DNA of 64,000 nt from an uncultured Acidobacteriota bacterium (GTDB lineage: Bacteria; Acidobacteriota; Vicinamibacteria; Vicinamibacterales; CAVVIG01). Position 1 is the stretch's first letter, and the number at the start of each line of letters is the position of its first letter. The DNA is taken from NCBI GenBank assembly GCA_963837345.1, contig CAWIMX010000001.1, forward strand, positions 1,539,823 through 1,603,822, in the 5' to 3' direction. A program made the position numbers and the translations under genes. Of this stretch, positions 10,327 to 62,945 are shown piece after piece. The notes under the pieces were generated by a model, which saw nothing but the letters and a program-made list of their open reading frames with translations, was not told the origin of the DNA and did not search any database.

Positions 10327-11166
10327 ATGACCCCAGCAAGCACCCCGGTGCTCGTGACCACCGACTGGGTGGCCCAGCACGCCAAGGACCCCGGCGTTCG
10401 CGTTGTCGAAGTGGACGTCGACACCGCCGCCTACGATCAAGGACATATTCCGGGCGCCGTCGGATGGAACTGGTCCACCCAGCTCTGCGACACCCTCGTG
10501 CGCGACATCGTGCCGGCCAAGCAGCTCGAGGAGCTCCTCGGCCGGAGCGGCATCGACAACCAGACGACGGTGATTCTCTACGGCGACAACAACAACTGGT
10601 TCGCGGCATGGGCGTTCTGGCAGCTGAAAATCTATCGCCATGCGGACGTTCGCATCATGGACGGGGGGCGCAAGAAATGGCTGGCCGAGGGCCGCGAGCT
10701 GACGACGGAGAAGACGTCGGCGACGGCGAAATCGTACAAAGCCGGCGCGCCGGATTCCTCCCTTCGCGCGTTCCTCCCCGAAGTGCAGCAGGCCATGAAG
10801 AACAAGGCCGCATCCCTCGTGGACGTGCGAAGTCCGCAGGAGTTCACCGGGGAGATCCTCGCGCCTCCCGGACTTCCGGAGACGTGCCAGCGCGGCGGCC
10901 ACATTCCCGGCGCCAAGAACATCCCCTGGGCGAAGGCCTGCAACGATGACGGGACGTTCAAGAGTGCCGAGGAGCTGAAAGCGTTGTACGGCGCCCAGGG
11001 CGTCACCGCCGGCACGCCCGTGATTGCGTACTGCCGCATTGGCGAGCGATCGAGCCACACCTGGTTCGTCCTGAAGTACCTGCTCGGCTTCGACAACGTC
11101 AAGAACTACGACGGTTCGTGGACGGAGTGGGGCAATCTCGTGGGCGCGCCGGTCGAAAAGCCGTAG
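10327..11166 (+). CDS. sseA: thiosulfate/3-mercaptopyruvate sulfurtransferase (tandem rhodanese)
   Basis: 279 aa. LVTTDWVAQHAKDPGVRVVEVD...GHIPGA (twice), active-site loop CRIGERSSH. AAGGAGA SD. Confidence 0.85.
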   Translation: MTPASTPVLVTTDWVAQHAKDPGVRVVEVDVDTAAYDQGHIPGAVGWNWSTQLCDTLVRDIVPAKQLEELLGRSGIDNQTTVILYGDNNNWFAAWAFWQLKIYRHADVRIMDGGRKKWLAEGRELTTEKTSATAKSYKAGAPDSSLRAFLPEVQQAMKNKAASLVDVRSPQEFTGEILAPPGLPETCQRGGHIPGAKNIPWAKACNDDGTFKSAEELKALYGAQGVTAGTPVIAYCRIGERSSHTWFVLKYLLGFDNVKNYDGSWTEWGNLVGAPVEKP

Positions 11167-11168
11167 CG

Positions 11169-11390
11169 ATGAACGCCGAAGACTACTCGCGACGCGACCA
11201 GGAACTGGCGGGATGGGCAGTGTCGATCGAAACGTACCGGCTCGGGGCCGTCTACTACTGCACGATCTCCAACGTCGACCCCGGCGCGCGATTCGCGCGC
11301 GCTGAGGGCCCGACACGCGAAGCCGCGGAGCGGTCGGCGCTCGAGAAGGCCGAGCGGTACCTCGGGCAGACGCGCCGCTTCAACGTGTAG
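11169..11390 (+). CDS. hypothetical small protein
   Basis: 73-aa ORF starting 2 nt after the rhodanese stop. No domain recognised. Confidence 0.4.
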   Translation: MNAEDYSRRDQELAGWAVSIETYRLGAVYYCTISNVDPGARFARAEGPTREAAERSALEKAERYLGQTRRFNV

Positions 11391-11394
11391 CCAC

Positions 11395-11500
11395 AGCGCC
11401 ACGGAGGCACAGAGACAATGAACCACAGTGGCACTGGGACACGGAGGAGATCTTCTTCTCGGTGTCTCGGTGTCTCGGTGGTTGTGGATTGAAGATTCCG
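11395..11500. repeat. dispersed-repeat hairpin (CCACGGAGGCACAGAGACA facing GTGTCTCGGTGTCTCGGTGGTT)
   Basis: Forward and reverse copies of the same about 20-nt core form an imperfect inverted repeat in the intergenic gap. It belongs to the same family as 12620-14699 and 62823-62945. Confidence 0.7.
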
Positions 11501-11501
11501 G

Positions 11502-12332
11502 GTGCCCTCGGTGGTTCAGCCGCTGATCGTCTTCGTCGCCGGCGCCGTGGCCGGCTCGTTCGGGGCGCTGCTCGGCCTGGGCGGCGGCGTCTTCCTCGTG
11601 CCCTTTCTGAACCTCGGCATGCATCTGCCGATGACCGCGGCGGCGGGCATCAGCCTCGCGACGGTGATCGCCACGTCGACGCTCGTCTCGGCAGGTCGAA
11701 CCGGCAAGCACCTCATCAACATGCGCCTCGGGATGCTGCTCGAAGTGGCGACCGCGGCCGGCAGCGTCCTGGGCGGGCTCACGGCGCAGCTCCTCGCCCA
11801 GAGCACGCTGCAGCGGCTGTTCGGCGTCATGGCGGCGCTGTCGGCGATGGCGATGCTCGGCCGCCTCCGGCGCCGCAACGTGATTCTCGATCCGTCGGCC
11901 GAGCCGGGCCGCTTCGGCGGGCGCTATCACGAGGAGGAAAGCGGCGGGACAATCACCTATCGCGTCCGTCGCCTGCCGCTGGCAATCGCGGCGTCGTTCG
12001 TCGCCGGCAACGTGTCGTCACTGCTCGGTATCGGCGGCGGCATCATCAAGGTGCCCGTGCTCAACGCCTGGTGCGGCGTGCCCATGCGGGCGGCGGCCGC
12101 CACCAGCGCCTTCATGATCGGCGTGACCGCAACGGCCGGAGCCATCATCTACTACGGGCACGGACAGCTGATTCCCGAACTGGCCGCCGCGGCGGTGCTC
12201 GGCGTCCAGATCGGATCGCGAGCCGGCCTCCACTTCGGGGCCCGCGCGTCCGCGCTCTGGCTGAAGGTGCTCATGGCCGCCGTGCTGTTCGTGGTGGCCG
12301 CGCTGATGTTCTTTCGCGCGGGCGCGTCATGA
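11502..12332 (+). CDS. sulfite exporter TauE/SafE family membrane protein (DUF81)
   Basis: 276 aa, multi-TM, duplicated GALLGLGGGV / SSLLGIGGGII motifs. Confidence 0.85.
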   Translation: MPSVVQPLIVFVAGAVAGSFGALLGLGGGVFLVPFLNLGMHLPMTAAAGISLATVIATSTLVSAGRTGKHLINMRLGMLLEVATAAGSVLGGLTAQLLAQSTLQRLFGVMAALSAMAMLGRLRRRNVILDPSAEPGRFGGRYHEEESGGTITYRVRRLPLAIAASFVAGNVSSLLGIGGGIIKVPVLNAWCGVPMRAAAATSAFMIGVTATAGAIIYYGHGQLIPELAAAAVLGVQIGSRAGLHFGARASALWLKVLMAAVLFVVAALMFFRAGAS

Positions 12333-12619
12333 CGTCCCACCGCCTCGAGCAGGTCATCGGCGTCGTGTTTCGCGTCGGCATCGCCGTGAGTTCGGCGTGC
12401 CTGGCGGCCGGGCTTCTGCTGTCGTTGTCGGATCTGAGCGCGGAGATGGCGCCATGGCTGCTGCACGCCGGTCTGATCGTGCTGCTGGCCACACCCGTGG
12501 CGCGCGTCGTGGTGTCCGTCGTGGAGTACACGATCGAGCGCGACTGGACGTTTGCGGCGCTGACGTTGATCGTCCTGGTGGAACTGGCGGCGAGCGTGGT
12601 GGCGGCGGTGTCCCGCTGA
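12329..12619 (+). CDS. DUF1634 domain membrane protein
   Basis: ATGA overlap with the tauE stop. MTSHRLEQVIGVVFRVGIAVSSACLAAGLLL..., 96 aa, the usual partner of DUF81. The rest of the 385-aa track ORF is a shadow frame. Confidence 0.7.
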   Translation: MTSHRLEQVIGVVFRVGIAVSSACLAAGLLLSLSDLSAEMAPWLLHAGLIVLLATPVARVVVSVVEYTIERDWTFAALTLIVLVELAASVVAAVSR

Positions 12620-12835
12620 GGCGCCAACCACGGAGCCACCGGGGAAGGAACCACAGAGGCACGGAGACACCAGGGGCGGAGCCACAGAGACAGGGAGCCA
12701 CTGGAGGACGGAACCACCGAGGCGCGGAGACAGAGACACTGGCGGACTTGAACCACAGGGGCACGGAGACACTGCGGGCGGAACCACCGAGGCGCCGGGC
12801 ACCGGGAGACGGAACAACAGAGGCAGAAGGACTCT
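12620..12835 (+). repeat. degenerate about 40-bp repeat array (5-6 copies), forward orientation (AACCACAGAGGCACGGAGACAC)
   Basis: Copies at about 12650, 12712, 12750, 12791 and 12822 are spaced about 40 nt apart. Orientation is opposite to the large array at 13321-14699. Confidence 0.65.
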
Positions 12836-12915
12836 CAGGGGCAATTTGCCGAGGCACGAACGCGCCGCAGCGACAGACCAACCGACACGACACACAAAGA
12901 TCGACGAACACGGGA

Positions 12916-13287
12916 TCAGAGAATTAGACGCCTGATCCCATCCCGAAGGACCGCCGAATTGAAGTTGATCAGCAGGCCCACGCGGTTCCGTGTAAGGCGC
13001 AGATACGTCAACACCTGCGCCTCGAACACAGGGGAGAGCATGGCTACGCTCTTAACCTCGACCAGCACCCGCCCCTCGACCAGCAGATCCACGCGATACG
13101 CGCCAAGAAGGTGTCCCTTGTAGTAAGCCGGAATGGACAGCTGTCGATCGTGTGAAATCCCTTGTTCCTGGAGCTCGATTGACAACGCCTGCTCGTACAG
13201 CGGCTCGAGAAGCCCCGGGCCGAGGCCCCGATGGACTTCAATCGCCGCCGCAATCACGCGCGAGGTCGTTGCGTTGACCGCCGTCAT
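12916..13287 (-). CDS. GxxExxY protein (PD-(D/E)XK nuclease superfamily, PDDEXK_3)
   Basis: GPGLLEPLYEQAL contains the GxxExxY motif, and VDLLVEGRVLVEVKS gives D...ExK. ATG 13287 is preferred. The ORF extension to 13320 (MNRPRGHEDAE) is encoded by a repeat copy. Confidence 0.85.
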   Translation of the reverse strand: MTAVNATTSRVIAAAIEVHRGLGPGLLEPLYEQALSIELQEQGISHDRQLSIPAYYKGHLLGAYRVDLLVEGRVLVEVKSVAMLSPVFEAQVLTYLRLTRNRVGLLINFNSAVLRDGIRRLIL

Positions 13288-13320
13288 CTCCGCGTCCTCG
13301 TGCCCTCGTGGTCTGTTCAT

Positions 13321-14699
13321 ATCCGAGCCCCGTGTCTCTGTGCCCAGTGGGTTTGTCGAGCCCGAGCCTCTGTGTCTCGGCGCCTTGATGGTTTGTCGAG
13401 CCCGAACCTCTGTGTCTCGGTGCCTCAGTGGTTTGTCGAGCCCGAGCCTCCGTGTCTCGATGCCTCAGTGGTTTGTCGGGCCCGAGCCTCTGTGTCTCGG
13501 TGCCTCAGTGGTTTGTCGAGCCCGAGCCTCCGTGTCTCGGTGCCTCAGTGGTTTGTCGAGCCCGAGCCTCTGTGTCTCGGTGCCTCAGTGGTTTGTCGAG
13601 CCCGAGGCTCCGTGTCTCGGTGCCTCAGTGGTTTGTCGGCCCGAGCCTCCGCGTCTCGGTGCCTCAGTGGTTTGTCGAGCCCGAGCCTCCGTGTCTCGGC
13701 GCCTTGATGGTTTGTCGGGCCCGAGCCTCTGTGTCTCGGCGCCTTGATGGTTTGTCGGGCCCGAGCCTCCGTGTCTCGGTGCCTCGGTGGTTTGTCGAGC
13801 CCGAGTCTCCGTGTCTCGATGCCTCAGTGGTTTGTCGAGCCCGAGTCTCCGTGTCTCGGTGCCTCGGTGGTTTGTCGAGCCCGAGCCTCTGTGTCTCGGT
13901 GCCTCAGTGGTTTGTCGAGCCCGAGCCTCCGTGTCTCGGTGCCTCAGTGGTTTGTCGAGCCCGAGCCTCCGTGTCTCGGCGCCTTGATGGTTTGTCGAGC
14001 CCGAGCCTCCGTGTCTCGGTGCCTCAGTGGTTTGTCGAGCCCGAGCCTCCGTGTCTCGGCGCCTTGATGGTTTGTCAAGCCCGAGCCTCCGTGTCTCGGT
14101 GCCTCAGTGGTTTGTCGAGCCCGAGCCTCCGTGTCTCGGTGCCTCGGTGGTTTGTCGAGCCCGAGCCTCCGTGTCTCGGCGCCTCAGTGGTTTGTCGAGC
14201 CCGAGCCTCCGTGTCTCGATGCCTCAGTGGTTTGTCGAGCCCGAGCCTCCGTGTCTCGGTGCCTTGATGGTTTGTCGAGCCCGAGCCTCTGTGTCTCGGC
14301 GCCTTGATGGTTTGTCGAGCCCGAGGCTCTGTGTCTCGGCGCCTCAGTGGTTTGTCGGCCCGAGCCTCTGTGTCTCGGTGCCTCAGTGGTTTGTCGAGCC
14401 CGAGCCTCCGTGTCTCGGCGCCTTGATGGTTTGTCGAGCCCGAGCCTCCGTGTCTCGGCGCCTTGATGGTTTGTCGAGCCCGAGCCTCCGTGTCTCGGCG
14501 CCTTGATGGTTTGTCGAGCCCGAGCCTCTGTGTCTCGGCGCCTCAGTGGTTTGTCGGGCCCGAGCCTCTGTGTCTCGGCGCCTTGATGGTTTGTCGAGCC
14601 CGAGCCTCGGTGCCTCAGTGGTTTGTCGAGCCCGAGCCTCCGTGTCTCGATGCCTCGGTGGTTTGTCGAGCCTGAGGCTCTGTGGCCTCAGTGGTTGGT
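13321..14699 (+). repeat. tandem array, about 34 copies of a 40-bp unit (GTGTCTCGGTGCCTCAGTGGTTTGTCGAGCCCGAGCCTCC)
   Basis: Visible 40-nt periodicity over about 1.38 kb. Copies differ only at a few fixed positions (cctc[c/t]gtg; cg[g/a][t/c]gcct[c/t][a/g][g/a]tgg), with occasional 39-nt units. No unique spacers. Confidence 0.95.
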
Positions 14700-17600
14700 T
14701 CAACGCCCGGGCCTTTGAGCCTCCGTGGCAAATACCCGAAGCGCCTCATCCCGAATCTCGCGTTCGACCAGCGGAAACGTTCCAAGAACGTGCTCGAATT
14801 CGGGCGCGCTCAGCCTGTACAGACCGGCCACCGCTGCCTGGAGCTGGCAGTACGCCGCCCTCTGTGGCCCGCGGGCGAGCAGCCGCGCCAGGCCGGCGAT
14901 GCGGCCGAGCGCCCGAGGCTCGGTGGCAGGTGTCGGCGCCGGCAGCGCCTGCACGACGGCCGTCGTCACGTGGGTGGTGACGCGCTGGCGCACGAAGTAG
15001 TTCACGACGAAGCTGTTCAGCAGGGCGCACAGCGCGTGCTGCCGCTGCACCGGCATCGGCGTCCTCAGGCAGAAGACGGTGTGCGTCGTCACGCACCCGG
15101 CGGGGAGCAGCGCCGCGATGAGGGTGAGGCGGTTGGTGGCGCCGGCCACGTCGCGGTAGGCAAGCCTGACGCGCTCGAACGGCCGCGCGCGGAGAAGGCG
15201 ACCTGCGGTCGACGGGCTGATGGCCTGCCGCGTTCGCTGCAGATCGACGGCGAAGGGCCCGATGTGCTTGCCTTCGACGATCGGGAGCCCTGAGCCCGAC
15301 GGCACGAAATGGCGGCGGTCGTCGGTCGCGTTCAGCTCGCGTCCGAATCGAGCGCCCCAGCCGTGCCTGCTGCCGAGCGGCGGGAACAGCGCCGCGGCCC
15401 GTTCAGCCAGCGAGACGTCCATCGCGGATCGAAGATCGGGAATGGCGAAGGTGTCTCCCGACAACCGGCCGAGCAACTCCATCGACAGCTGGACGGGAAA
15501 GTCGGGCGACCGGGAGGCGCCATCGCCGAGGCGCTCGAGCACGGCCGGATCCCGCTCGCCCAATCGGCAGGCGATCGCGTGCGTCGGCGAGCCAGCTGAG
15601 GCGGTGACGAGCATGAAGCGCACGCTTCGATGAATCGGGAAGACGCCGTCGCGGTTGTCGAAGCCTGCGATGGCGTCGATGCTGGCCCGTGCGAACAGCT
15701 TCTGGCGAAGGGCGGCGCTGCCGTGATCGATCGCGACGCCGGAGGGCAGCACCAGCCCGAGGCGTCCGCCGGGCCGCGTGAGGTCGAGGGCGCGCTCGGC
15801 GAACAACTGGTAGCGATTGGGGTGGCCGGTCGTCGTGGCCGTATAGACGCCGGACGATCGCGCGAATCGAACGAGCGGACCGCCGTCGAGCCGCGCGCGT
15901 CTGCGGTCCTCGGGCGATCCGGCGTCGCCACGGACCATGTCCCAGGGCGGGTTCCCCAGCACGGCGTCGAAGCCGGGCGCGGGGAGGCGTGTGCCGGCCG
16001 GTGAAAAGAATACCTCCGGGAATTCGATCTCCCAGTGCAGGAAACGACGTCGCGTCGCGATGGCGTCGGCGTGGCCGAGGTATGCGGCGGCGGTGCCATC
16101 GGGTAGCGCGCCCCGGGCGGCGAGCACAGCGTCGGTGAGTGCGCCAAAGGCTTCCGGCGGTACGGGCGTCTCACTGGTCGAGAACCACGCGGCGCACCAC
16201 AGATCGGCGACGCGTCGCCACCGCTCCCACACATGCTGGCGACGGTGCAGCGTGGCCAGCGTCCGCTCCTTCTCGCGCACCCGCTCGATCGTGTCGCCCG
16301 GGACATTCTCGAGCGCGAATCGGAGCGGCAGAGTCGCTTCGATGGCCGGCCTCGCCGCCGCCTCGTCGAACAGCCGGGGTGGGTCGGGCCCCCCCTGCCG
16401 GCGCTCGCGGCCGGGTCGAGGCGGCCGCCCGAGTGCCGACAGCCACGCGCCGACCAGGCTGTCGCCGGTTCGCAGGCGATGATCGAGGAACGTGAGCGGC
16501 CGATCCGCGGCGAGAGTGGTCAGCCACAGCGACAGCCTGGCCAGCTGCACCGCCATCGGGTTGATGTCCACGCCGTACAGGCAGCGCTCGGCAATGGTGC
16601 GTCGAATGGTCGCCCGCTCCGCGTCGCCGATATCGGCCGGCAGACAGCCGCCGGCGTCGACGAGCGCCCGCTCGTACTCGCGCGCCAGATAGCGGCAGGC
16701 GGCAACGAGAAACGCCCCGCTGCCCATGGCGGGATCGAGCACGCGCAAGCCGAGAATTCGCTCGGGCGCCGCGTGGCGGACGAGGGGTTCGAGCGTGCGG
16801 CGCACGATGTAGTCGGCGATGGGCTGTGGCGTGTAGAAGGTGCCGCTTGCCTTCCGGAGGCCCGAGCCGGCCTCGAGCGCGACCCGCCGCCCCTCGATCT
16901 TCGGCCGGTAGTCGAGGATGGTCTCGTACACGGCGCCAAGCTGTTCGACGCCGAGGTCGTGATATCCGATGCGTTCGCGCGCGGCGCGATTGGCCGCCGG
17001 ACGGGTGGAGAGGGCCAGAACGGTTCGCCGCGCCGCCTCGTCGTCCAGGTCGCGGCGTTCGGCCAGCGGCGTGTGCGAGGGCGCGAACAGGCGGCCGTTG
17101 AACGGCGTCACGCGGAGATCGCCGGCTCGGCAGCCCGCATGCGCGAGGCGCGACATTGCCTGAAGCGCATCCCAGAAGCCCGTGGCGGCGCGCGGACGCT
17201 CGGCCATGGCGCGCAGCGCCTCGACGCTGTAGCTGTTTCGGTAGACGGGATGCCACAGCGGCATGAGCCCCCGCGCTTCGGCGAACAGGAGGAAGAGGAG
17301 GCGATAGACGATCGTCAGCGATTGTTCGTACGCACGATCGAGTGCCGACCCGTCGACCGCGCGCCGACCGCGCACGGCGAGCGAGGTCGCCACGTCGGAG
17401 GCCGCTTGCAGTACGCCATGACGAAGCGATCGACAGACGCCCGACGCGTGGCGGTCGGACGCATCCACGAGGTCGTGGAGTGCGGTCCGCGGCGGAACGC
17501 CGCCGCCGGCGAGCATCGAGGCGCGCGTCAACCGCAGGAACGCAGCCAACGCCCGGTCGTCTTCGAACGCGGCGTCGAGGTCCCATTCGAAATGCCTTCG

Positions 17601-18014
17601 CGCGTACACGCGCGCGCCGTCCACGACTCGAAGCTGGCAGCCGTTGAACAGCACACACCACGGCGACGAGCGATCGAAGGCCTGGGCCACTGCCGATGTC
17701 CACCACGATTCGAGTGGCTCGCACCAGCCCACCACGAGCAGGGCCACTCGGTGCGTCGCCGTGGCCAGAGTCGCCGCAACGGCGCGCTCCGATTCGCCGA
17801 TGGCGCACGGCGCATCGAAGCCGAGCGCTTCGGCCAGCGGACCGGCCCCGACGTCCAGTATGGCGCGCAGGCCCGACGCGGGACCCAGCGTCTGGCATCG
17901 CTCGCGCCACGCGAGCAGCCGACGCCCGGCTTCGCGATGGCGCTCGTCGCCACCTGCCGGCGTTGTCGCCAGAAACCGTTCAGAGAGAAGGTCGCCGCTG
18001 AATCCGGGCAGCAT
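14700..18014 (-). CDS. Eco57I/PglX-like N6-adenine DNA methyltransferase, 1104 aa (type IIG / BREX / DISARM-DrmMI-like architecture)
   Basis: Motif I VLDPAMGSGAFLV, motif IV LGNPPWD. Helical N-domain LTIVYRLLFLLFAEARGL. TaqI-like C-terminal specificity region. ATG 18014 lies 4 nt after the helicase stop. The first 265 codons of the 1369-aa track ORF overlap the helicase and are rejected. Confidence 0.85.
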   Translation of the reverse strand: MLPGFSGDLLSERFLATTPAGGDERHREAGRRLLAWRERCQTLGPASGLRAILDVGAGPLAEALGFDAPCAIGESERAVAATLATATHRVALLVVGWCEPLESWWTSAVAQAFDRSSPWCVLFNGCQLRVVDGARVYARRHFEWDLDAAFEDDRALAAFLRLTRASMLAGGGVPPRTALHDLVDASDRHASGVCRSLRHGVLQAASDVATSLAVRGRRAVDGSALDRAYEQSLTIVYRLLFLLFAEARGLMPLWHPVYRNSYSVEALRAMAERPRAATGFWDALQAMSRLAHAGCRAGDLRVTPFNGRLFAPSHTPLAERRDLDDEAARRTVLALSTRPAANRAARERIGYHDLGVEQLGAVYETILDYRPKIEGRRVALEAGSGLRKASGTFYTPQPIADYIVRRTLEPLVRHAAPERILGLRVLDPAMGSGAFLVAACRYLAREYERALVDAGGCLPADIGDAERATIRRTIAERCLYGVDINPMAVQLARLSLWLTTLAADRPLTFLDHRLRTGDSLVGAWLSALGRPPRPGRERRQGGPDPPRLFDEAAARPAIEATLPLRFALENVPGDTIERVREKERTLATLHRRQHVWERWRRVADLWCAAWFSTSETPVPPEAFGALTDAVLAARGALPDGTAAAYLGHADAIATRRRFLHWEIEFPEVFFSPAGTRLPAPGFDAVLGNPPWDMVRGDAGSPEDRRRARLDGGPLVRFARSSGVYTATTTGHPNRYQLFAERALDLTRPGGRLGLVLPSGVAIDHGSAALRQKLFARASIDAIAGFDNRDGVFPIHRSVRFMLVTASAGSPTHAIACRLGERDPAVLERLGDGASRSPDFPVQLSMELLGRLSGDTFAIPDLRSAMDVSLAERAAALFPPLGSRHGWGARFGRELNATDDRRHFVPSGSGLPIVEGKHIGPFAVDLQRTRQAISPSTAGRLLRARPFERVRLAYRDVAGATNRLTLIAALLPAGCVTTHTVFCLRTPMPVQRQHALCALLNSFVVNYFVRQRVTTHVTTAVVQALPAPTPATEPRALGRIAGLARLLARGPQRAAYCQLQAAVAGLYRLSAPEFEHVLGTFPLVEREIRDEALRVFATEAQRPGR

Positions 18015-18018
18015 CGGA

Positions 18019-20448
18019 CTAGGGCAGGAGCACCAGCAGCAGCTCGAACGGCCCCGACCGCACGGACGCCATCGCCTCCAGACAGGCCAGCCGATCCGCC
18101 GCGTCGGTCTCGATTCCGCGGGCCCAGTCGCTTTCGCGCTCGCGCTCGCGCTCGGCGCGCCGCGAGAAGAGCTCGGGCTGGAAGGAGGAGCCGGCCGGCT
18201 GGGCTGCCAGCGCGATCCGACGGGTCCGGTCGATCGCGGCTCGAGTGAATGCCCGTTGCGCCTCGGCGGCCCGGGCCTGCCAATCGGCGGTCGCACGCTG
18301 GAGCAGATCCGTGACGTCGTCAGAGCGTCCCTCGAGGGCAGCCTCCAGCAATTTCGACGATCGTGGCCATGTCGCGACAGGATCCACGGCGAGCGGCACG
18401 ACCAGCGACTCCACGCGTCGGCCGGCGCCATCCTCGATCGATACCCGGAAGACGGCGAGCGCGCGGCGGCCGAGCCATTGGCGCGTGCGGCGGCGGGCGC
18501 GCGCCCAGGCGGGCGCCGCCGGTGCGGGAACGCTCCCGCCGGTTGGGTTGTGCTGAAGTCGGCGAACTGTTTCGAGCCGGGCGGCCTCAGTCGAGGCGTC
18601 GCGGGCGAGCGAAACCTGATTGACCGCGGCCTCGCCCGTGAGCGCGTCGTCCGGCGCATCCGCCCGCGCAGCCTCGGGCCGCAGCCCTGCGATGGCGACG
18701 CGCGCCAGCGTGACCTCGTCCTGTCCGTCGAGCGGATCAGCGGTGCCCAGGTCGAGCCGGGCGCGGGCGATCCGGGATCGGAGATGCGCCACCAGCCGCG
18801 CTTCTCCACTGTCGGCCGCGATCAGATGAAAGACGTGCACCGTCCGCCGCTGTCCAATCCGGTCGACCCGGCCGATGCGCTGTTCGAGGCGCACCGGATT
18901 CCACGGCAGCTCGAGGTTCACGACGATCCGGCATCGCTCCTGTAGGTTCAGCCCTTCGGCCGCAGCATCGGTGGCGAGGAGCAGGCCTTGGCGGCCGCTC
19001 GTGAACTCGGCCACGACGCTGGTGCGCTCGGCGCGCGTCAGGCCGCCGTGCAGCACCGCGGCGCGGCGCGCGAGCCGCGTCAGCACGTATTCGAGCGTGT
19101 CCCGATACTCCGTGAAGACGATCGCCGGCTCGCGGGTACGGCGAAGCAGGCGAACGAGCGCGGACAGCTTGGAGCTCTCGCCCGACGCATCGAGCGCCGC
19201 CGCCGACAGGCGCTCGAGCAGGCTCCGCTCGCGCGCGGTGTTGCCCAGATCCAACGCGCCGGGCCACGCCGGCGCGCCGTCGTCGGTCGTGATCTCGCCG
19301 TCGCGATCGGTCAACGGAAGGAACAGCTGGCCGACCGGTGGTGCGCCAGGCGCCCCTTCGGCCAGCGCTTCCAGGCGACGGCCGACCGACTGATGCAAGG
19401 CAAAGGGACTCGACAGCGCTCTTTTGTGGAGCACGGCCAGGCCGAGCCATCGCTCCCGCAGATCGCCGCGGTGCGCCCGGCGGACGGCCCGGCCGAACGC
19501 GTCGAGCAGCGACAGCATGCGTCGTTCGGCCGCGCCCGTGGCGACGGGAAGCTGATGAATGCGGCGGCGGATGCCCAGCGGCACGTCGTGCCGCGTCCGT
19601 CGAAACACCAGCAGTGGATCGCCAGTCGATCCCACACCGCACAGCTCGCGAAACTGCTGGCGATCACCGCTGTGGGGCGTGGCCGACAGCAGCAGGACGT
19701 AGGGCGCCCGGCCCGCCAGCCTCGTTACCGCGCGCCGGCGATCGGTATCGCCGGCGACGGCGTGCGCTTCATCTACGATCACCACGTCCCATCGGCTCAG
19801 CGCGACCAGCGGAAGAACGTGAGCCTGCTTCACGTAGTCGATCGACGCGATCGCGATTGGCACGGTGGTCCATGGGTTGGCGGAGCGCGCGAGGCTGGCC
19901 GACCGCCGTCGCAGCGCGGCGCCATCCAGAACGACGGCGTCCAGCTGGAATCGCGCCGCGAGCTCTCCGGCCCACTGATCACGCAAACCCGCCGGGGCGA
20001 GAATCAGCACGCGGGCGGCCGCGCCGCGAGCCATCAGCTCCACCGTGACCAGGGCCGCCTGAATCGTCTTCCCCAGACCCACACCATCGGCGAGCAGGAC
20101 GCGGCATCCGAGCCCGCGAGCCACCGCCAGAGCAGGTTCGAGCTGGTGTGGCCGAAGCTCGATCCGTGCGCGATGTCCTGCCTTGAGCGAGCCTGGCGGC
20201 GCGCTTTCAACCAGCCACTGCCGGCACGCCCGAGCCCAGACCCGAGAGCGCGCATGTCTCAGGCCTGTCCGGCGCCCAACGGACTCGACGATGTCGAACG
20301 GTGTGAGCACCCGCTGTTGCACGCCCAGATTGGTGGCGCCCACGCCCACGAGCGTGAGCTCCGAACACGCTGCATGCGCGCGACGGTCGACGATGCGCCA
20401 GCGCTGCCGGCGGACGCGCACCAGATCCCCGGGGTGTCGAATCTGCAT
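18019..20448 (-). CDS. SNF2/RapA-like superfamily-2 helicase, 809 aa
   Basis: Motif I LLADGVGLGKTIQA, motif II VVIVDEAHAV, motif III LLLSATPHSG, motif VI LEQRIGRVDRIGQ. N-terminal GDLVRVRRQRWRIVD resembles a RapA-type Tudor-like domain. About 250-aa uncharacterised C-terminal tail. Confidence 0.85.
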   Translation of the reverse strand: MQIRHPGDLVRVRRQRWRIVDRRAHAACSELTLVGVGATNLGVQQRVLTPFDIVESVGRRTGLRHARSRVWARACRQWLVESAPPGSLKAGHRARIELRPHQLEPALAVARGLGCRVLLADGVGLGKTIQAALVTVELMARGAAARVLILAPAGLRDQWAGELAARFQLDAVVLDGAALRRRSASLARSANPWTTVPIAIASIDYVKQAHVLPLVALSRWDVVIVDEAHAVAGDTDRRRAVTRLAGRAPYVLLLSATPHSGDRQQFRELCGVGSTGDPLLVFRRTRHDVPLGIRRRIHQLPVATGAAERRMLSLLDAFGRAVRRAHRGDLRERWLGLAVLHKRALSSPFALHQSVGRRLEALAEGAPGAPPVGQLFLPLTDRDGEITTDDGAPAWPGALDLGNTARERSLLERLSAAALDASGESSKLSALVRLLRRTREPAIVFTEYRDTLEYVLTRLARRAAVLHGGLTRAERTSVVAEFTSGRQGLLLATDAAAEGLNLQERCRIVVNLELPWNPVRLEQRIGRVDRIGQRRTVHVFHLIAADSGEARLVAHLRSRIARARLDLGTADPLDGQDEVTLARVAIAGLRPEAARADAPDDALTGEAAVNQVSLARDASTEAARLETVRRLQHNPTGGSVPAPAAPAWARARRRTRQWLGRRALAVFRVSIEDGAGRRVESLVVPLAVDPVATWPRSSKLLEAALEGRSDDVTDLLQRATADWQARAAEAQRAFTRAAIDRTRRIALAAQPAGSSFQPELFSRRAERERERESDWARGIETDAADRLACLEAMASVRSGPFELLLVLLP

Positions 20449-37614: not shown

Positions 37615-38135
37615 CTCGCGGGGCCCCACCCCCGCTCGTTGCCGTCGCTTCCGCTCCGGATCTTGATACGGGCGGCAATCCCGCCCGCGGTCGCCACTCT
37701 CTCCCCGGCTCGCGGGCCCGTCCCCGCTCGTTGCCGTCGCTTCCGCTCCGGATCTTGATACGGGCGGCGATCCCGCGCGGTCGCCACTCTCTCCCCGGCT
37801 CGCGGGCCCGTCCCCGCTCGTAGCCGTCGCTTCCGCTCCGGATCTTGATACGGGGGGCGATCCCGCGCGGTCGCCACTCTCTCCCCGGCTCGCGGGCCCG
37901 TCCCCGCTCGTTGCCGTCGCTTCCGCTCCGGATCTTGATACGGGCGGCAATCCCGCGCGGTCGCCACCCTCTCCCCGGCTCGCGGGCCCGTCCCCGCTCG
38001 TAGCCGTCGCTTCCGCTCCGGATCTTGATACGGGGGGCGATCCCGCGCGGTCGCCACTCTCTCCCCGGCTCGCGGGCCCGTCCCCGCTCGTTGCCGTCGC
38101 TTCCGCTCCGGATCCTGAGACGGGCGGCGACCCGG
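37615..38135. repeat. tandem repeat, about 5.8 copies of a 90-bp unit with an alternating A/B (180-bp) higher-order pattern
   Basis: Unit starts at about 37630, 37721, 37811, 37901, 37991 and 38081. Subtypes ttgccg...cgggcggc and tagccg...cggggggc alternate. The repeat lies between the kinase stop and the 81-aa ORF. Confidence 0.9.
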
Positions 38136-38146
38136 TCCCTGATTCG

Positions 38147-39893
38147 CTAGCTGGCCGCCGCCTGAGCGGCCTTGTCGTCGCGCGCCGGGAAGCGCATCGT
38201 GAACACGGTGCCCTTGCCCACTTCGCTCTCGACGACGATGGTGCCGTCCAGCTGCTCGACGATCCGCTTGCTGATGGCGAGGCCCAGCCCGAGGCCGCGC
38301 CGTTTCGTCGTCACGAAGTCCTCGAAAATCGCTCCGAGGCGCTCCGGCGGAATGCCCGATCCGGTGTCGGCGACCGTCACCACCACCTGGTCGCCCTGCC
38401 GGGCCGTCCGGATGGTGACCTTGCCGCCCGGCTGCGTGGCCTGAATCGCGTTCGTCACCAGGTTGCGATAGACCCGGCCGAGCGCGAAGCGGTCGCCCTC
38501 GATGACGAGCGGCCCGGTCGCGTAGTCGGTCTCCACGGTCACGCCGTTCCGCTCGCCCTCGGGCTTCATCGGATCGACGATCTCCGCGACCGACACGTTG
38601 ACGTCCATCGCAAACCGCTCGATGGGCTTGGGCTTGACGATGTTGCGCAGGTCGTCCATGAAGCGGCGGAGCGTCTCGAGCTCGCGCTCGATCGTGCGGT
38701 GGAACAGGTCGCGCGATTCGGCGTCGAGGTCGTCCCGGAGCAGCAGGCGGGTGCTGTTGCCGATGTTCTGAATCGGATGCGACAGATCGTGAACGAGTCC
38801 GGCGGCCACGCGGCCGAACATGGCATGGCGCTCCTGACGCTTCACGTCTTCCTGCAGCTCGACCAGACGATCCGCCATCGTGTTGAACGACGCGCCCAGT
38901 TCGCTGAACTCGTCGCCGGTGTCGATCTCCACGCGGGTGTGGAGATTCCCTGCGGCGATCGAATGAGTGCCGCGCTGGAGCTTGTAGATCGGATGGATCA
39001 TGAAGCGCCGGCCGAAGAAGTAGCCCGCCGACACCATCACGAGCAGCCCGAGGGAAATCGCCACCACCAGCTGGCGCGCGAGCTCGGTGGACGTCGCAAA
39101 GGCCTCGTTCGTCGGCTGTTCTACCACGACCGTCCATCCGAGCGCGGGAATCGCGGCGCCGACGGCGAGCATGTTTCTGCCCGCCGCATCGGTGTACTCG
39201 GCTTCGGTCGGTCCGCCGCCAAAGAGCGGATGATCGCGCATGTTGGCGGACTGCGCCACCAGGGCCTTCTGGTCGGGATCGCCGTGTGCGATCAGATCGC
39301 CGTTCGGCGCGAGCACGAGGGCATAGCCGCGCTGGCCGAGGCGGATCTGATCGACCATGCGCCACATCTCTTCGAGGCGGAATTCGCCGACCAGCCACCC
39401 GGCCGGACGATTGAGTCGCAGGAGATGGATCGCGAACACCGTGGTCGGCAGCTGGTCTTCGTCGAGCTCGATGGGCGACATGCTGACGCCTTCGAGCGCA
39501 AGCTGGCGGTCCGACTCGGCCGGAATCCCGGTGCTCGGCGGCCCGACGCGGCTCGTCGCCAGGACCGAACCGTCCTCGTTGAAGAGCGTGACCTCGCGGA
39601 ACTCCCGGAACTCGAGGACGTAGTTCTTGAGGATGCGGTCCTGCTGCCAGCTGGCGAGCTCGGTATCCTGCAGGTCGGCCGAGAGCGCTTTGAGAAGCTT
39701 GGCGTTGGTGCTGATGTAGCGGCGGATTTCCTCGGCGGCGCGTTCGGCGACGTTCTGCATTGCCCGCGATGACCGATTCCCGCGTGCCGCGCTGCAGGGA
39801 CACGATCGAGACGATGCCGTAGACGACCAGGGGCGCGACGGCGGCGACCGCCAGGAGCAGGGCGAAGCGGGTGGCGATGTGTCGGATCGTCAT
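38147..39893 (-). pseudogene. sensor histidine kinase (TM, periplasmic domain, TM, HAMP, HisKA, HATPase_c), one +1 frameshift at about 39757-39780
   Basis: TM1 MTIRHIATRFALLLAVAAVAPLVVYGIVSIVSL is in the frame of ORF 37587..39893. The rest (MQNVAERAAEEIRRYIS..., HAMP, H-box AAGLVHDLSHPIQNI, G-boxes DTGSGIP / GLGLGLAI) is in 38147..39760. A GATTC lies at 39775-39779. Confidence 0.8.
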
Positions 39894-61436: not shown

Positions 61437-62822
61437 ATGGCCGTCCTGACAGAGGCTGTCGTCGTCGTCGGCGCGGGGTTCGCCGGCCTGAGTGCGGCCG
61501 TCCGGCTGGCGGCTGCGGGCCGGCGCGTGGTGGTGCTCGAGGCGCGGGCCCGCCTGGGCGGTCGCGCGACCGCGTTCGAAGACCGCGAGACCGGCGAGCT
61601 CGTGGACAACGGGCAGCACGTCCTCCTCGGGTGCTATGCCGACACGTTCGCCTTCCTGCAGGCGATCGGAGCCGCCGATGCCGTGCGCCTGCAGGCGGGG
61701 CTCGGCGTCACGATGATTGATCGGGCCGGGCGGCGCACGCGGCTGTCGTGCCCGTCGTTGCCCCCGCCGTTGCATCTGCTCGCGGGGGTGATGGAGTGGG
61801 AGGCGCTCGGCTGGCGCGATCGGCTGGCGGTGCTGCGCCTGGCGCCGGCGATTCGGCTCGCACGGCGAGCGATCGATCCGAACGCCGGTGTCATCGCCGC
61901 ATCGGCCGCCGAAACCGTCGAGCGCTGGCTCGAGCGCAACGGTCAGACCCCTCGACTGATCGAGATGCTGTGGCATCCGCTGGCGCTGGCGGCGCTCAAC
62001 CAGCCGCCGGATCGCGCCGCCGCGCCCGTGTTCGCTCGCGTTCTGGCGGAGATGTTCGGGTCGGCTCCACGCGCGGCCGCGATCGGATGGCCCACGCGGC
62101 CCCTGCATCTGATGTACGCAGAGCCGGCGCGATCGTGGCTCGAACGACACGACGCCGAGGTGCACACCGGGGTGGCGGCCCGTGTGATCCTCGCCGACGG
62201 CGCGGTCGACGCCGTCGAAGCCGCCGGCGAGCGGTGGCGGCCCGGCGCGGTGATCGTGGCCGTGCCCTGGTTCGCGCTGGGAGAGGTCCTCGCCGGCGAA
62301 ACGGCTCCGATGGCCCCTGTGCTGGGGCGCGCCGCACGCATGGAATCGTCGCCGATCGTGACCGTCAACCTCTGGTTCGATCGTGCCGTGATGGACGAGC
62401 CATTCGTCGGCCTGCCGGGCCGCCCCGTCCAGTGGGTCTTCGACAAGCGGAGCGTTCTCGGGGCATCGGCGTCGCACCTGTCGGTCGTGGCGAGCGGCGC
62501 GGCGGAGCTGGCGGCGCTGTCGAACGATCGCCTGATCCGCGTGGCGCACGGCGAGCTGCTGGACGCGATTCCGGCCGTCCGCCCGGCGGCGCTGACACGA
62601 GCGACCGTGATTCGTGAGCCGCGTGCGACGTTCTCGCTCGCGCCGGGCCAGCCCGCGCGCCCGCCGGCCGAAACGCCCGTGGATGGCCTTGTGCTCGCCG
62701 GCGACTGGATCGACACCGGCCTGCCAGCTACGATCGAGAGCGCCGTCCGGAGCGGCCACCGGGCGGCCGAGATCGTGTTGACCACCGGGGCGCGGCGCGA
62801 GGGAAATGACCACGGGAAATAA
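61437..62822 (+). CDS. hpnE: hydroxysqualene dehydroxylase HpnE (FAD-dependent amine oxidase fold)
   Basis: VVVVGAGFAGLSAAVRLAAAGRRVVVLEARARLGGRA...DNGQHVLLGCY. The start is taken at ATG 61437 (or 61431) inside the continuous track ORF 61050..62822. Confidence 0.85.
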   Translation: MAVLTEAVVVVGAGFAGLSAAVRLAAAGRRVVVLEARARLGGRATAFEDRETGELVDNGQHVLLGCYADTFAFLQAIGAADAVRLQAGLGVTMIDRAGRRTRLSCPSLPPPLHLLAGVMEWEALGWRDRLAVLRLAPAIRLARRAIDPNAGVIAASAAETVERWLERNGQTPRLIEMLWHPLALAALNQPPDRAAAPVFARVLAEMFGSAPRAAAIGWPTRPLHLMYAEPARSWLERHDAEVHTGVAARVILADGAVDAVEAAGERWRPGAVIVAVPWFALGEVLAGETAPMAPVLGRAARMESSPIVTVNLWFDRAVMDEPFVGLPGRPVQWVFDKRSVLGASASHLSVVASGAAELAALSNDRLIRVAHGELLDAIPAVRPAALTRATVIREPRATFSLAPGQPARPPAETPVDGLVLAGDWIDTGLPATIESAVRSGHRAAEIVLTTGARREGNDHGK

Positions 62823-62945
62823 CCACGGAGGAAAAACCACGGAAGAAAAACCACGGAGGCACAGAGACACAGAGAAGAGGGAGCATCTCGTGGCCCCCGT
62901 GTCTCCGTGGTGTCCTCTCTCCGCGGGCTCCGTGGTTGAGAGACG
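62823..62945. repeat. dispersed-repeat hairpin of the CCACGGAGGCACAGAGACAC family
   Basis: Three forward AACCACGGA(G/A)G copies face CCCGTGTCTCCGTGG...CTCCGTGGTT. The last codons of hpnE (NDHGK*) already lie in repeat sequence. Confidence 0.7.

Follow-up and report, generated by a model that had tools for sequence, protein, structure and literature searches.

The stretch of Acidobacteriota DNA analyzed here (hereafter the window, the 64,000 nucleotides that make up our view of this genome) contains a 1.4-kb tandem array of 40-bp repeats next to a small gene of the GxxExxY family. We find that the repeat unit of this array is the terminal repeat of the gene family, that the architecture in which such repeats bracket the gene is family-wide, that the array is lineage-specific, and that smaller expansions recur elsewhere. 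The array is very probably the amplified end of a GxxExxY cassette; a preliminary description of this DNA had treated it as a separate entity, and we instead regard it as the cassette's own terminal inverted repeat in amplified form. Taken as a whole, it is likely that the left terminal inverted repeat of the cassette was tandemly amplified 34-fold into satellite-like, non-functional DNA. The features of the element in the window are the following.

13321..14699, minus strand: array of 34 units of 40 bp and one degenerate outer module; full copies of the 5' terminal inverted-repeat module
13288..13320, minus strand: degenerate gene-proximal 5' module, reading ATG AAC AGA CCA CGA GGG CAC GAG GAC GCG GAG
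12916..13287, minus strand: gene of the GxxExxY protein, PD-(D/E)XK fold, 123 aa from M12, assigned by profile matches, invariant columns, AlphaFold2 and Foldseek
12626..12841, minus strand: 3' array of seven inverted modules, each ending on the gene sense strand in ...CTCNGTGGTT(C)
14712..14729, minus strand: module-like remnant GCCACGGAGGCTCAAAGG in the last codons of the methyltransferase gene (...VFATEAQRPGR*)
11392..11520: gene-less hairpin with forward and reverse modules, two of each, flanked by a stop codon (11388-11390) and the TauE gene
62797..62945: another gene-less hairpin belonging to this repeat family, intergenic

Tandem Repeats Finder places the tandem array at 13323-14684, with a period of 40, 34.3 copies and 90% matches (score 2071). 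Cut at the AAACC anchor on the minus strand, the array yields 34 units and one degenerate outer module that extends up to 14699 and immediately precedes the stop codon of the neighbouring methyltransferase (MTase) gene (14700-14702). The units run head-to-tail without spacers, and the differences between them are limited to 10 of the 40 positions. The earlier account of about 34 near-identical 40-bp repeats, with few variable positions and no spacers, abutting the MTase stop codon was therefore accurate. Two unit haplotypes, CACTGAGGCACC and CATCAAGGCGCC, are intermingled along the array. The 34 units comprise 23 distinct sequences, the variants follow one another in non-periodic order, three units are of odd length, and unit-to-unit identity is flat at 0.91-0.93 at every lag.

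On the gene sense strand, the unit reads AAACCAC-TGAGG-CAC-CGAGA-CAC-GGAGG followed by the linker CTCGGGCTCGAC, and thus consists of three CACNGAGN octamers and 13 nt of linker. Its core is a complete copy of the terminal inverted repeat of the cassette, AACCAC-NGAGN-CAC-NGAGN-CAC-NGAG. This core, or its complement, is carried by all 34 + 7 modules of the two arrays, following the triplet plan CRCNRAG-N. On the other side of the gene, modules in the opposite orientation start at + strand positions 12626, 12649, 12680, 12712, 12751, 12782 and 12813, with periods of 23-39 nt, and are 83-94% complementary to the array units over 16-29 nt. The preliminary description had recognized this inverted degenerate array and its orientation, and its count of five to six copies at 12620-12835 is to be replaced by seven at 12626-12841. 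The pattern CACNGAGNCACNGAG, two consecutive octamers with at most one mismatch, has 69 matches in the window versus 0.57 expected, all at four places: the two arrays and the hairpins at 11392-11520 and 62797-62945. In the first of these hairpins, the reverse arm's terminal GTGGTT includes the GTG start codon of TauE.

The gene between the arrays had been named as GxxExxY, PD-(D/E)XK, from the letters of the sequence, and profile searches confirmed this assignment, with 135.5 bits for TIGR04256 (GxxExxY; cut-off 35, profile positions 3-115 of 116) and 134.1 bits for PF13366 (PDDEXK_3; cut-off 22). The open reading frame (ORF) covers 12916..13320 on the minus strand and encodes 134 aa. An exact-sequence look-up returned no match for this form; the form on record has 123 aa and begins at M12, at 13287. 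Translated from 13320, the gene-proximal module at 13288..13320 would read as the leader MNRPRGHEDAE. Many homologues share a leader MNxPQxHxxTE in an alignment of 27 sequences, which is CCACAGAGNCACNGAGACACNGAG in translation. The catalytic triad of D78, E88 and K90 is invariant in the 27 sequences and intact in the window protein. The AlphaFold2 model has a predicted local distance difference test (pLDDT) score of 90.7, and Foldseek places it closest, with a template modelling (TM) score of about 0.48, to the solved folds of lambda exonuclease, Cas4 SSO0001, LHK-Exo and splicing endonucleases from archaea. As modelled, the GxxExxY protein is a predicted nuclease with an intact active site. 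No solved structure was detected by sequence search of the PDB, the protein has no match in PADLOC, and literature searches found no functional study of the family, which by profile comprises 33,558 clusters (50% identity) at E <= 0.001 and 14,119 at E <= 1e-10. Two full domains in tandem make up family members with a length of about 276 aa (P0241-P0248 and others); these forms may represent fusions of a dimer, or translation through the repeat that joins two neighbouring cassettes.

The alignment of the 27 homologues was used to collect 80 loci from species-representative genomes of Acidobacteriota, Chloroflexota, Chlorobi, Leptospiraceae, Planctomycetota, Verrucomicrobiota, Bacteroidota, cyanobacteria, proteobacteria and archaea, with GC contents of 0.32-0.72. 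These homologues were picked via the protein and the hairpins described below via an exact DNA pattern, and the fractions given are descriptive and not population estimates. Whether GxxExxY genes are generally flanked by inverted repeats had been raised as a question earlier; about 60% of the 80 cross-phylum loci have three octamers upstream of the gene and, downstream, three in inverted orientation. The motif CACNGAG occurs at 5.25 per kb just upstream of the gene and its complement at 5.07 per kb just downstream, versus a background of 0.31 per kb, a 17-fold enrichment. The usual octamer count is exactly three per side, fitted tightly between the neighbouring genes, and a typical locus runs from the stop codon of the upstream gene through ..AAC-CACAGAGnCACAGAGnCACAGAG, the GxxExxY ORF and CTCTGTGnCTCTGTGnCTCTGTG-GTT.. 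into the next gene. Loci without CACNGAG show variants in the same layout, namely CGCAGAG, CACGAAG, CACAAAG, CGCAAAG, CGCCAAG and CGCGGAG. The same octamer variant is present on both arms in 43 of 50 elements, compared with 16.1 +/- 2.5 when partners are shuffled. The terminal consensus of 738 outermost arms is TTMRC directly followed by CACAGAGR, with C at position -1 in 94%. The plan of the cassette is therefore an end of about 29 bp, TTMRC(CACNGAGN)x3, a gene for a PD-(D/E)XK nuclease of about 125 aa, and the same end inverted. In the collected genome, viral and metagenome loci, GxxExxY is the sole recognizable cargo between forward and reverse modules; genes for four-helix-bundle proteins, the type found in 23S intervening sequences, may have such ends as well.

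A few cassettes have arms that differ in variant, as in Westiellopsis (L081, 3860-4600), where CGCAGAG upstream faces CTTGGCG downstream; this cassette may be a recombinant between elements. In a member of the Geobacteraceae (L026, 1929-2687 and 4001-4444), modules and a GxxExxY cassette lie in the nuo operon, around nuoE and after nuoF, and the nuoF reading frame terminates within the repeat (..PQRHRGTEVNNAG*).

The history of the locus is visible in relatives; by its TauE homologues, the organism belongs among the Acidobacteria. In one of them (L152), TauE is 90% and the MTase C-terminus 69% identical to the window, the arrangement of TauE and DUF1634 genes with a converging MTase gene is the same, and both flanks of the array are collinear. 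There, a gap of 250 nt holds two modules and a frameshifted GxxExxY gene truncated at the D78 codon, with no downstream modules left. In both genomes, the MTase frame ends inside a module (...ATEAQRPGR* at 14703-14729 of the window; ...TTETRR* at 2881-2905 of L152, also given as ...LFTTETRR* inside its own module), which indicates that the cassette was already in place in their common ancestor. Judging from these reading frames, the element has rewritten the C-terminus of the neighbouring MTase. Since the relative has two modules and a decayed GxxExxY gene, the 34-unit array is a later, lineage-specific expansion in the lineage of the window. The earlier impression of a recently expanded or homogenized array thus holds for the expansion in this lineage but not for its being very recent, because 23 distinct unit sequences occur among the 34. 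Another relative (L153) has one module after DUF1634, followed by the contig end, and both the element and the MTase gene are missing from a more distant one (L154). The site upstream of TauE occurs in three states: a 23-nt spacer in L153 (2880-2901), a short hairpin in L152 (1464-1513) and the two-module hairpin of the window (11392-11520).

Expansions of the repeat are also found elsewhere. A pattern of two adjacent modules matched at least 120 metagenome contigs, many of them at contig ends, and runs of three to seven modules are frequent among the matches listed. In one contig (L176), six to seven modules, each 41-42 bp long, lie immediately upstream of an intact GxxExxY gene and three or more lie downstream of it; their linker sequence is a different one. 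In another (L085), a whole hairpin of 120 bp is repeated three times, and in L233 (3238-3630) a hairpin has three octamers on one arm versus about 37 on the other. The 34-unit array is the most extreme expansion among the examined loci, possibly only in being visible, because short-read assemblies cannot span longer arrays.

The hairpins of L233 (3238-3630) and L205 (150-412) have one arm of three octamers and another of about 32-37 perfect octamers (CTCTGTGG / CTCTGTGT), an extreme, one-sided expansion at the level of the octamer. In the hairpin of the window at 62797-62945, the outer octamer is amplified about four times with a 14-nt period (62801-62859; AACCACGGAGGAAA), a third, smaller kind of end amplification in this genome.

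Gene-less inverted pairs are very common and take the form of intergenic hairpins of 70-150 nt with a median loop of about 40 nt; such copies are the commoner form, compared with gene-bearing cassettes. An exact 24-nt pattern retrieved 70 stretches in IMG/VR contigs; the forward-reverse pairs among them are nearly all hairpins, with loops of 12-100 nt, and several such hairpins lie between the genes of a single contig (L082-L151). The plasmid collection, consulted as a source of filled/empty pairs, gave only six matches.

These observations are best explained by the following course of events. In the lineage's ancestor, a cassette was present between the genes for DUF1634 and the MTase, and the unit of module plus linker later multiplied to 34 copies on one side and seven on the other, most likely by slipped-strand mispairing or unequal recombination. 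Because they are internally periodic (8 nt), the ends should be prone to both processes. Like transposases and homing nucleases at their own ends, the nuclease would recognize the octamer triplets as DNA, and breaks at the ends may stimulate expansions. Such recognition is inferred from the fixed association of gene and repeat, and action of the GxxExxY protein on the octamer ends is conceivable from the sequences, if somewhat less probable than its opposite. The cassette itself is selfish-like, given its patchy occurrence across phyla, its decay in the relative, its tight packing between genes and its many gene-less derivatives. The array would then be satellite-like DNA attached to a selfish element; that it has no function of its own is our preferred, by no means firm, view, and the 1.4 kb are probably neutral.

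Several points weigh against this interpretation. The copy number of 34 is taken from one assembly, and the proposal that the array lacks a function is an argument from absence. The periods of modules in unrelated contigs cluster at 30-32 and 40-43 nt (median 41), a hint of constraint that plain slippage does not explain. Crude clustering of the proteins gave no clean separation by octamer variant, and co-evolution of protein and repeat is consequently not supported. In 637 kb of IMG/VR viral-class contigs there are more than 100 modules and no GxxExxY gene, so that the hairpins may not depend on the nuclease; these gene-free hairpins are the main caution on recognition of the octamer ends by the protein. 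As for mobility, the short state of the site upstream of TauE could be either an empty site or a collapsed hairpin, and among gene-bearing cassettes neither a clean target-site duplication nor an unambiguous empty site was found. The outer complementary bases belong to the repeat, and no target-site duplication is evident in the locus flanks inspected. Mobility is therefore suggested by the patchy distribution, the decay in the relative and the one polymorphic hairpin site.

Among the alternatives, the one that survives best, while still unlikely, is an element of the intervening-sequence type that acts at the RNA level. The cassette would be co-transcribed with the helicase and MTase genes, the arrays would pair, and RNase III or the GxxExxY protein would cleave the stem. 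Cleavage would release or control the GxxExxY mRNA and insulate the flanking genes, and the many units would offer alternative pairing registers. An ORF in the loop of a very long stem had already been proposed in the preliminary description. The predicted fold of the minus-strand RNA of 12610-13600 (991 nt) reaches -482.8 kcal/mol compared with -424 +/- 11 for shuffles (z = -5.35), with about seven proximal units paired with the seven inverted modules and the ORF in the loop. The geometry, which is also the usual plan of the gene family, is thus upheld. The very long stem is not, because about 27 of the array's 34 units lack a counterpart on the opposite side. Both small hairpins of the window likewise fold significantly (z = -4.9 for 11392-11520; z = -3.5 / -5.9 for 62797-62945), elements lie inside operons and directly after stop codons and leave the genes undisrupted, e.g. 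between nuoF and nuoG in L026, and the splicing-endonuclease fold is among the Foldseek neighbours. The array alone, however, appears unstructured. Folding of unit multimers had been suggested as a check, and three units fold like shuffled sequence (z = +0.15). The small dyad CCGAG-N9-CTCGG is indeed present in each unit, but a structured RNA unit built on it was rejected, as three units do no better than shuffles.

Comparative data likewise bear on the RNA-level explanation. The matching of octamer variants between arms agrees with it but is equally expected of DNA inverted repeats. At variable arm positions, neither co-variation nor complementarity exceeds that of shuffled controls, and G-T mismatches are no commoner than A-C mismatches (13 vs 13 in 18 gene cassettes, 64 vs 58 in 87 hairpins). 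Since a selected sense-strand RNA helix should favour G-U and no such preference is seen, the comparative signal is that of DNA inverted repeats, and neither arm co-variation nor mismatch counts gave a sign of RNA-level selection. On these alignments, the arm signal lends no support to transcription or processing and excludes neither. Rfam has no relevant match at E <= 1 in 11000-16000, none at gathering score in the whole window and none in 17 related loci, and a scan of the array for promoters and terminators found no such sites.

Clearly less probable is an array of protein-binding sites, in which the 34 + 7 modules would titrate or regulate the GxxExxY protein by serving as its sink, or would be structural DNA comparable to centromere-like clusters or those of bacterial interspersed mosaic elements (BIMEs). 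Every unit keeps a complete three-octamer module and not a random fragment, multi-module arrays with periods of about 32 and 40-43 nt recur beside intact genes in unrelated contigs (L176, L223), and the relative with the decayed gene has only two modules, all of which would fit. However, binding of the repeat by the protein is an assumption of this explanation, and the variant CATCAAGG breaks the first octamer in about one third of the units. The asymmetry of 34 versus seven and the variable 3' periods look unselected, and similar one-sided expansions occur in gene-less hairpins (L233).

We consider it very improbable that the copy number, or the array itself, was made by the assembler. One assembly only spans the array, and many metagenome contigs terminate in such repeats. 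A separate short-read assembly (ERR11718635 in Logan, L001) contains an identical GxxExxY gene on a contig that ends 92 nt upstream of the gene, within the array. This break fits a real long repeat, although it does not confirm the copy number, and the contig agrees base for base with the innermost units. Collapse or inflation would not yield 23 unit variants in non-periodic order with three units of odd length, and both flanks are collinear with the relative L152.

A CRISPR-like array without spacers, an array of small RNAs or a + strand gene for a repeat protein can be set aside: the repeats are regular and near CRISPR repeats in unit size, and + strand ORFs do run across the array as described earlier (e.g. 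13428..14267, 279 aa), but there are no spacers, the unit has no stable fold, no Rfam CRISPR-repeat family matches even at E <= 1, the ORFs shift frame at every unit because 40 is not a multiple of 3, and at other sites this sequence forms hairpins that plainly do not code for protein. Both a CRISPR-like array and a coding repeat protein were rejected on these grounds.

Two genes next to the array lie outside the element.

14700..18809, minus strand: DrmMI/PglX-like N6-adenine methyltransferase gene, true start probably near 18018
18019..20448: DrmD-like SNF2 helicase gene, upstream of the MTase gene

A possible link of the array to this helicase-MTase pair had been raised, and it proved to be positional and not functional, as L152 retains the MTase gene with a GxxExxY pseudogene. 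We likewise rejected the view that the cassette is part of a pair resembling the defence island system associated with restriction-modification (DISARM): the GxxExxY protein lacks a PADLOC match, and the flanking sequence varies from locus to locus (29 of the 80 homologous loci inspected).

Among known systems, the repetitive extragenic palindromes (REPs) with their REP-associated tyrosine transposases (RAYTs), including REPtrons, REPINs and BIME clusters, are the closest analogue in how the element works. In both, a short repeat encloses a small gene in inverted copies and is also spread between genes as single or clustered hairpins, copies lie just after stop codons, and repeat arrays can accumulate. 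The window shows the REPtron geometry, as the inverted repeat around the gene also occurs in dispersed form, in the hairpins of 11392-11520 and 62797-62945. In contrast to RAYTs, which are HUH/Y1 transposases (IS200/IS605-like), the protein here is a PD-(D/E)XK nuclease matching PF13366 only. The repeat is built from octamers (CRCNRAG N), three in tandem; it has only purines on one strand and lacks the GTAG head of REPs. REPs are lineage-specific, but here a single design extends over many phyla and into archaea. BIMEs alternate REPs, while the array here runs head-to-tail in a single orientation. Assignment as a REPtron was therefore rejected, as the flanked gene is not a HUH/Y1 transposase and the repeat is different. 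A more tentative proposal, which we regard as possible but rather doubtful, is that GxxExxY genes and octamer-triplet hairpins form an undescribed cross-phylum class of selfish elements, REP/RAYT-like but built on a minimal PD-(D/E)XK nuclease. This nuclease would recognize the (CRCNRAG-N)x3 ends, maintain or spread the cassette and the far more numerous gene-less hairpins, including the phage copies, and cause the breaks that drive one-sided expansions.

[quoted passage not shown] Here, however, there is no DDE, serine or tyrosine transposase, no target-site duplication was seen, and the ends are internally periodic. The MITE Chunjie of Geobacter, which is inserted into an operon, is rich in A+T, with ends of 21 bp and direct repeats of 9 bp (PMC3184786); it was rejected as a match because these properties differ from those of the octamer-triplet element.

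Intervening sequences with an ORF interrupt the 23S rRNA of Leptospira and Coxiella, where the ORF encodes S23p (PMC4990558). They resemble the element in having an inverted-repeat stem with a small ORF in the loop, and in being selfish and tolerated inside a transcription unit. S23p, however, is a four-helix bundle (PF05635) and the protein here belongs to PF13366; the element lies between protein-coding genes, and its stem is an in-silico prediction. The preliminary description had found the geometry reminiscent of intervening-sequence elements. The element is not an rRNA intervening sequence, a class that occupies helix 25 or helix 45 of a 23S rRNA gene and leaves the transcript when RNase III cuts the stem, as there is no large-subunit rRNA in the window or in the 17 related loci.

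The ends of Mu and Tn7 hold several transposase-binding sites, and TnsA of Tn7 is a PD-(D/E)XK nuclease. Repeated short sites at each inverted end (three here), and a protein with a restriction-endonuclease fold acting on them, therefore have a precedent. The element differs in having no DDE partner (TnsB or MuA) and no ATPase, a size below 0.6 kb and a single protein of about 125 aa. With integron attC cassettes it has in common small promoter-less ORFs with imperfect inverted repeats, and a subset of ends reads RYYYAAC...GTTRRRY (e.g. GCCTAAC/GTTAGGC in L098 and L126). Here, however, the repeat brackets the gene, whereas attC follows it, the 8-nt periodic core is unlike the R and L boxes of attC, the outer bases (-3 to -7) are not generally RYYYAAC, and no integrase was seen adjoining the element. 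An attC cassette was rejected on the bracketing repeat, the periodic core and the restriction of core-like sites to a subset of ends.

Literature searches with the motif strings, GxxExxY, PF13366 and TIGR04256 returned no account of this architecture, with about 1.4 million manuscripts and the subscription literature unsearchable, and from the literature and Rfam the element family is provisionally undescribed. The array itself looks like a curiosity, and the element family behind it looks worth following up. GxxExxY genes come with a fixed, recognizable pair of DNA ends, and these octamer ends are a concrete candidate substrate for the family. The repeat design is common to Leptospira, Acidobacteria and methanogen-related archaea and is present in viral contigs. 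The translated repeat explains the odd MNxPQxHxxTE N-termini and many spurious annotated ORFs, and repeat ends can give start codons or C-terminal residues to neighbouring genes, here TauE and the MTase. The repeat also ends many metagenome contigs, which is consistent with its breaking short-read assemblies.

Two observations were made elsewhere in the window. The DrmMI-like MTase and DrmD-like helicase genes are adjacent (14700-20448; PADLOC, 1e-105 and 4e-86), no DrmA, DrmB or DrmC was seen adjoining the pair, and the gene upstream of it encodes an M14 peptidase, with a weak DUF4350 match below the Pfam cut-off; together, these two genes may form a module that is DISARM-related or type IIG-like. 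A 90-bp unit repeated 5.6 times with 95% identity (37630-38134, Tandem Repeats Finder score 922) carries no octamer motif and occupies part of the gap downstream of a histidine-kinase-like gene (38147..39760, minus strand).

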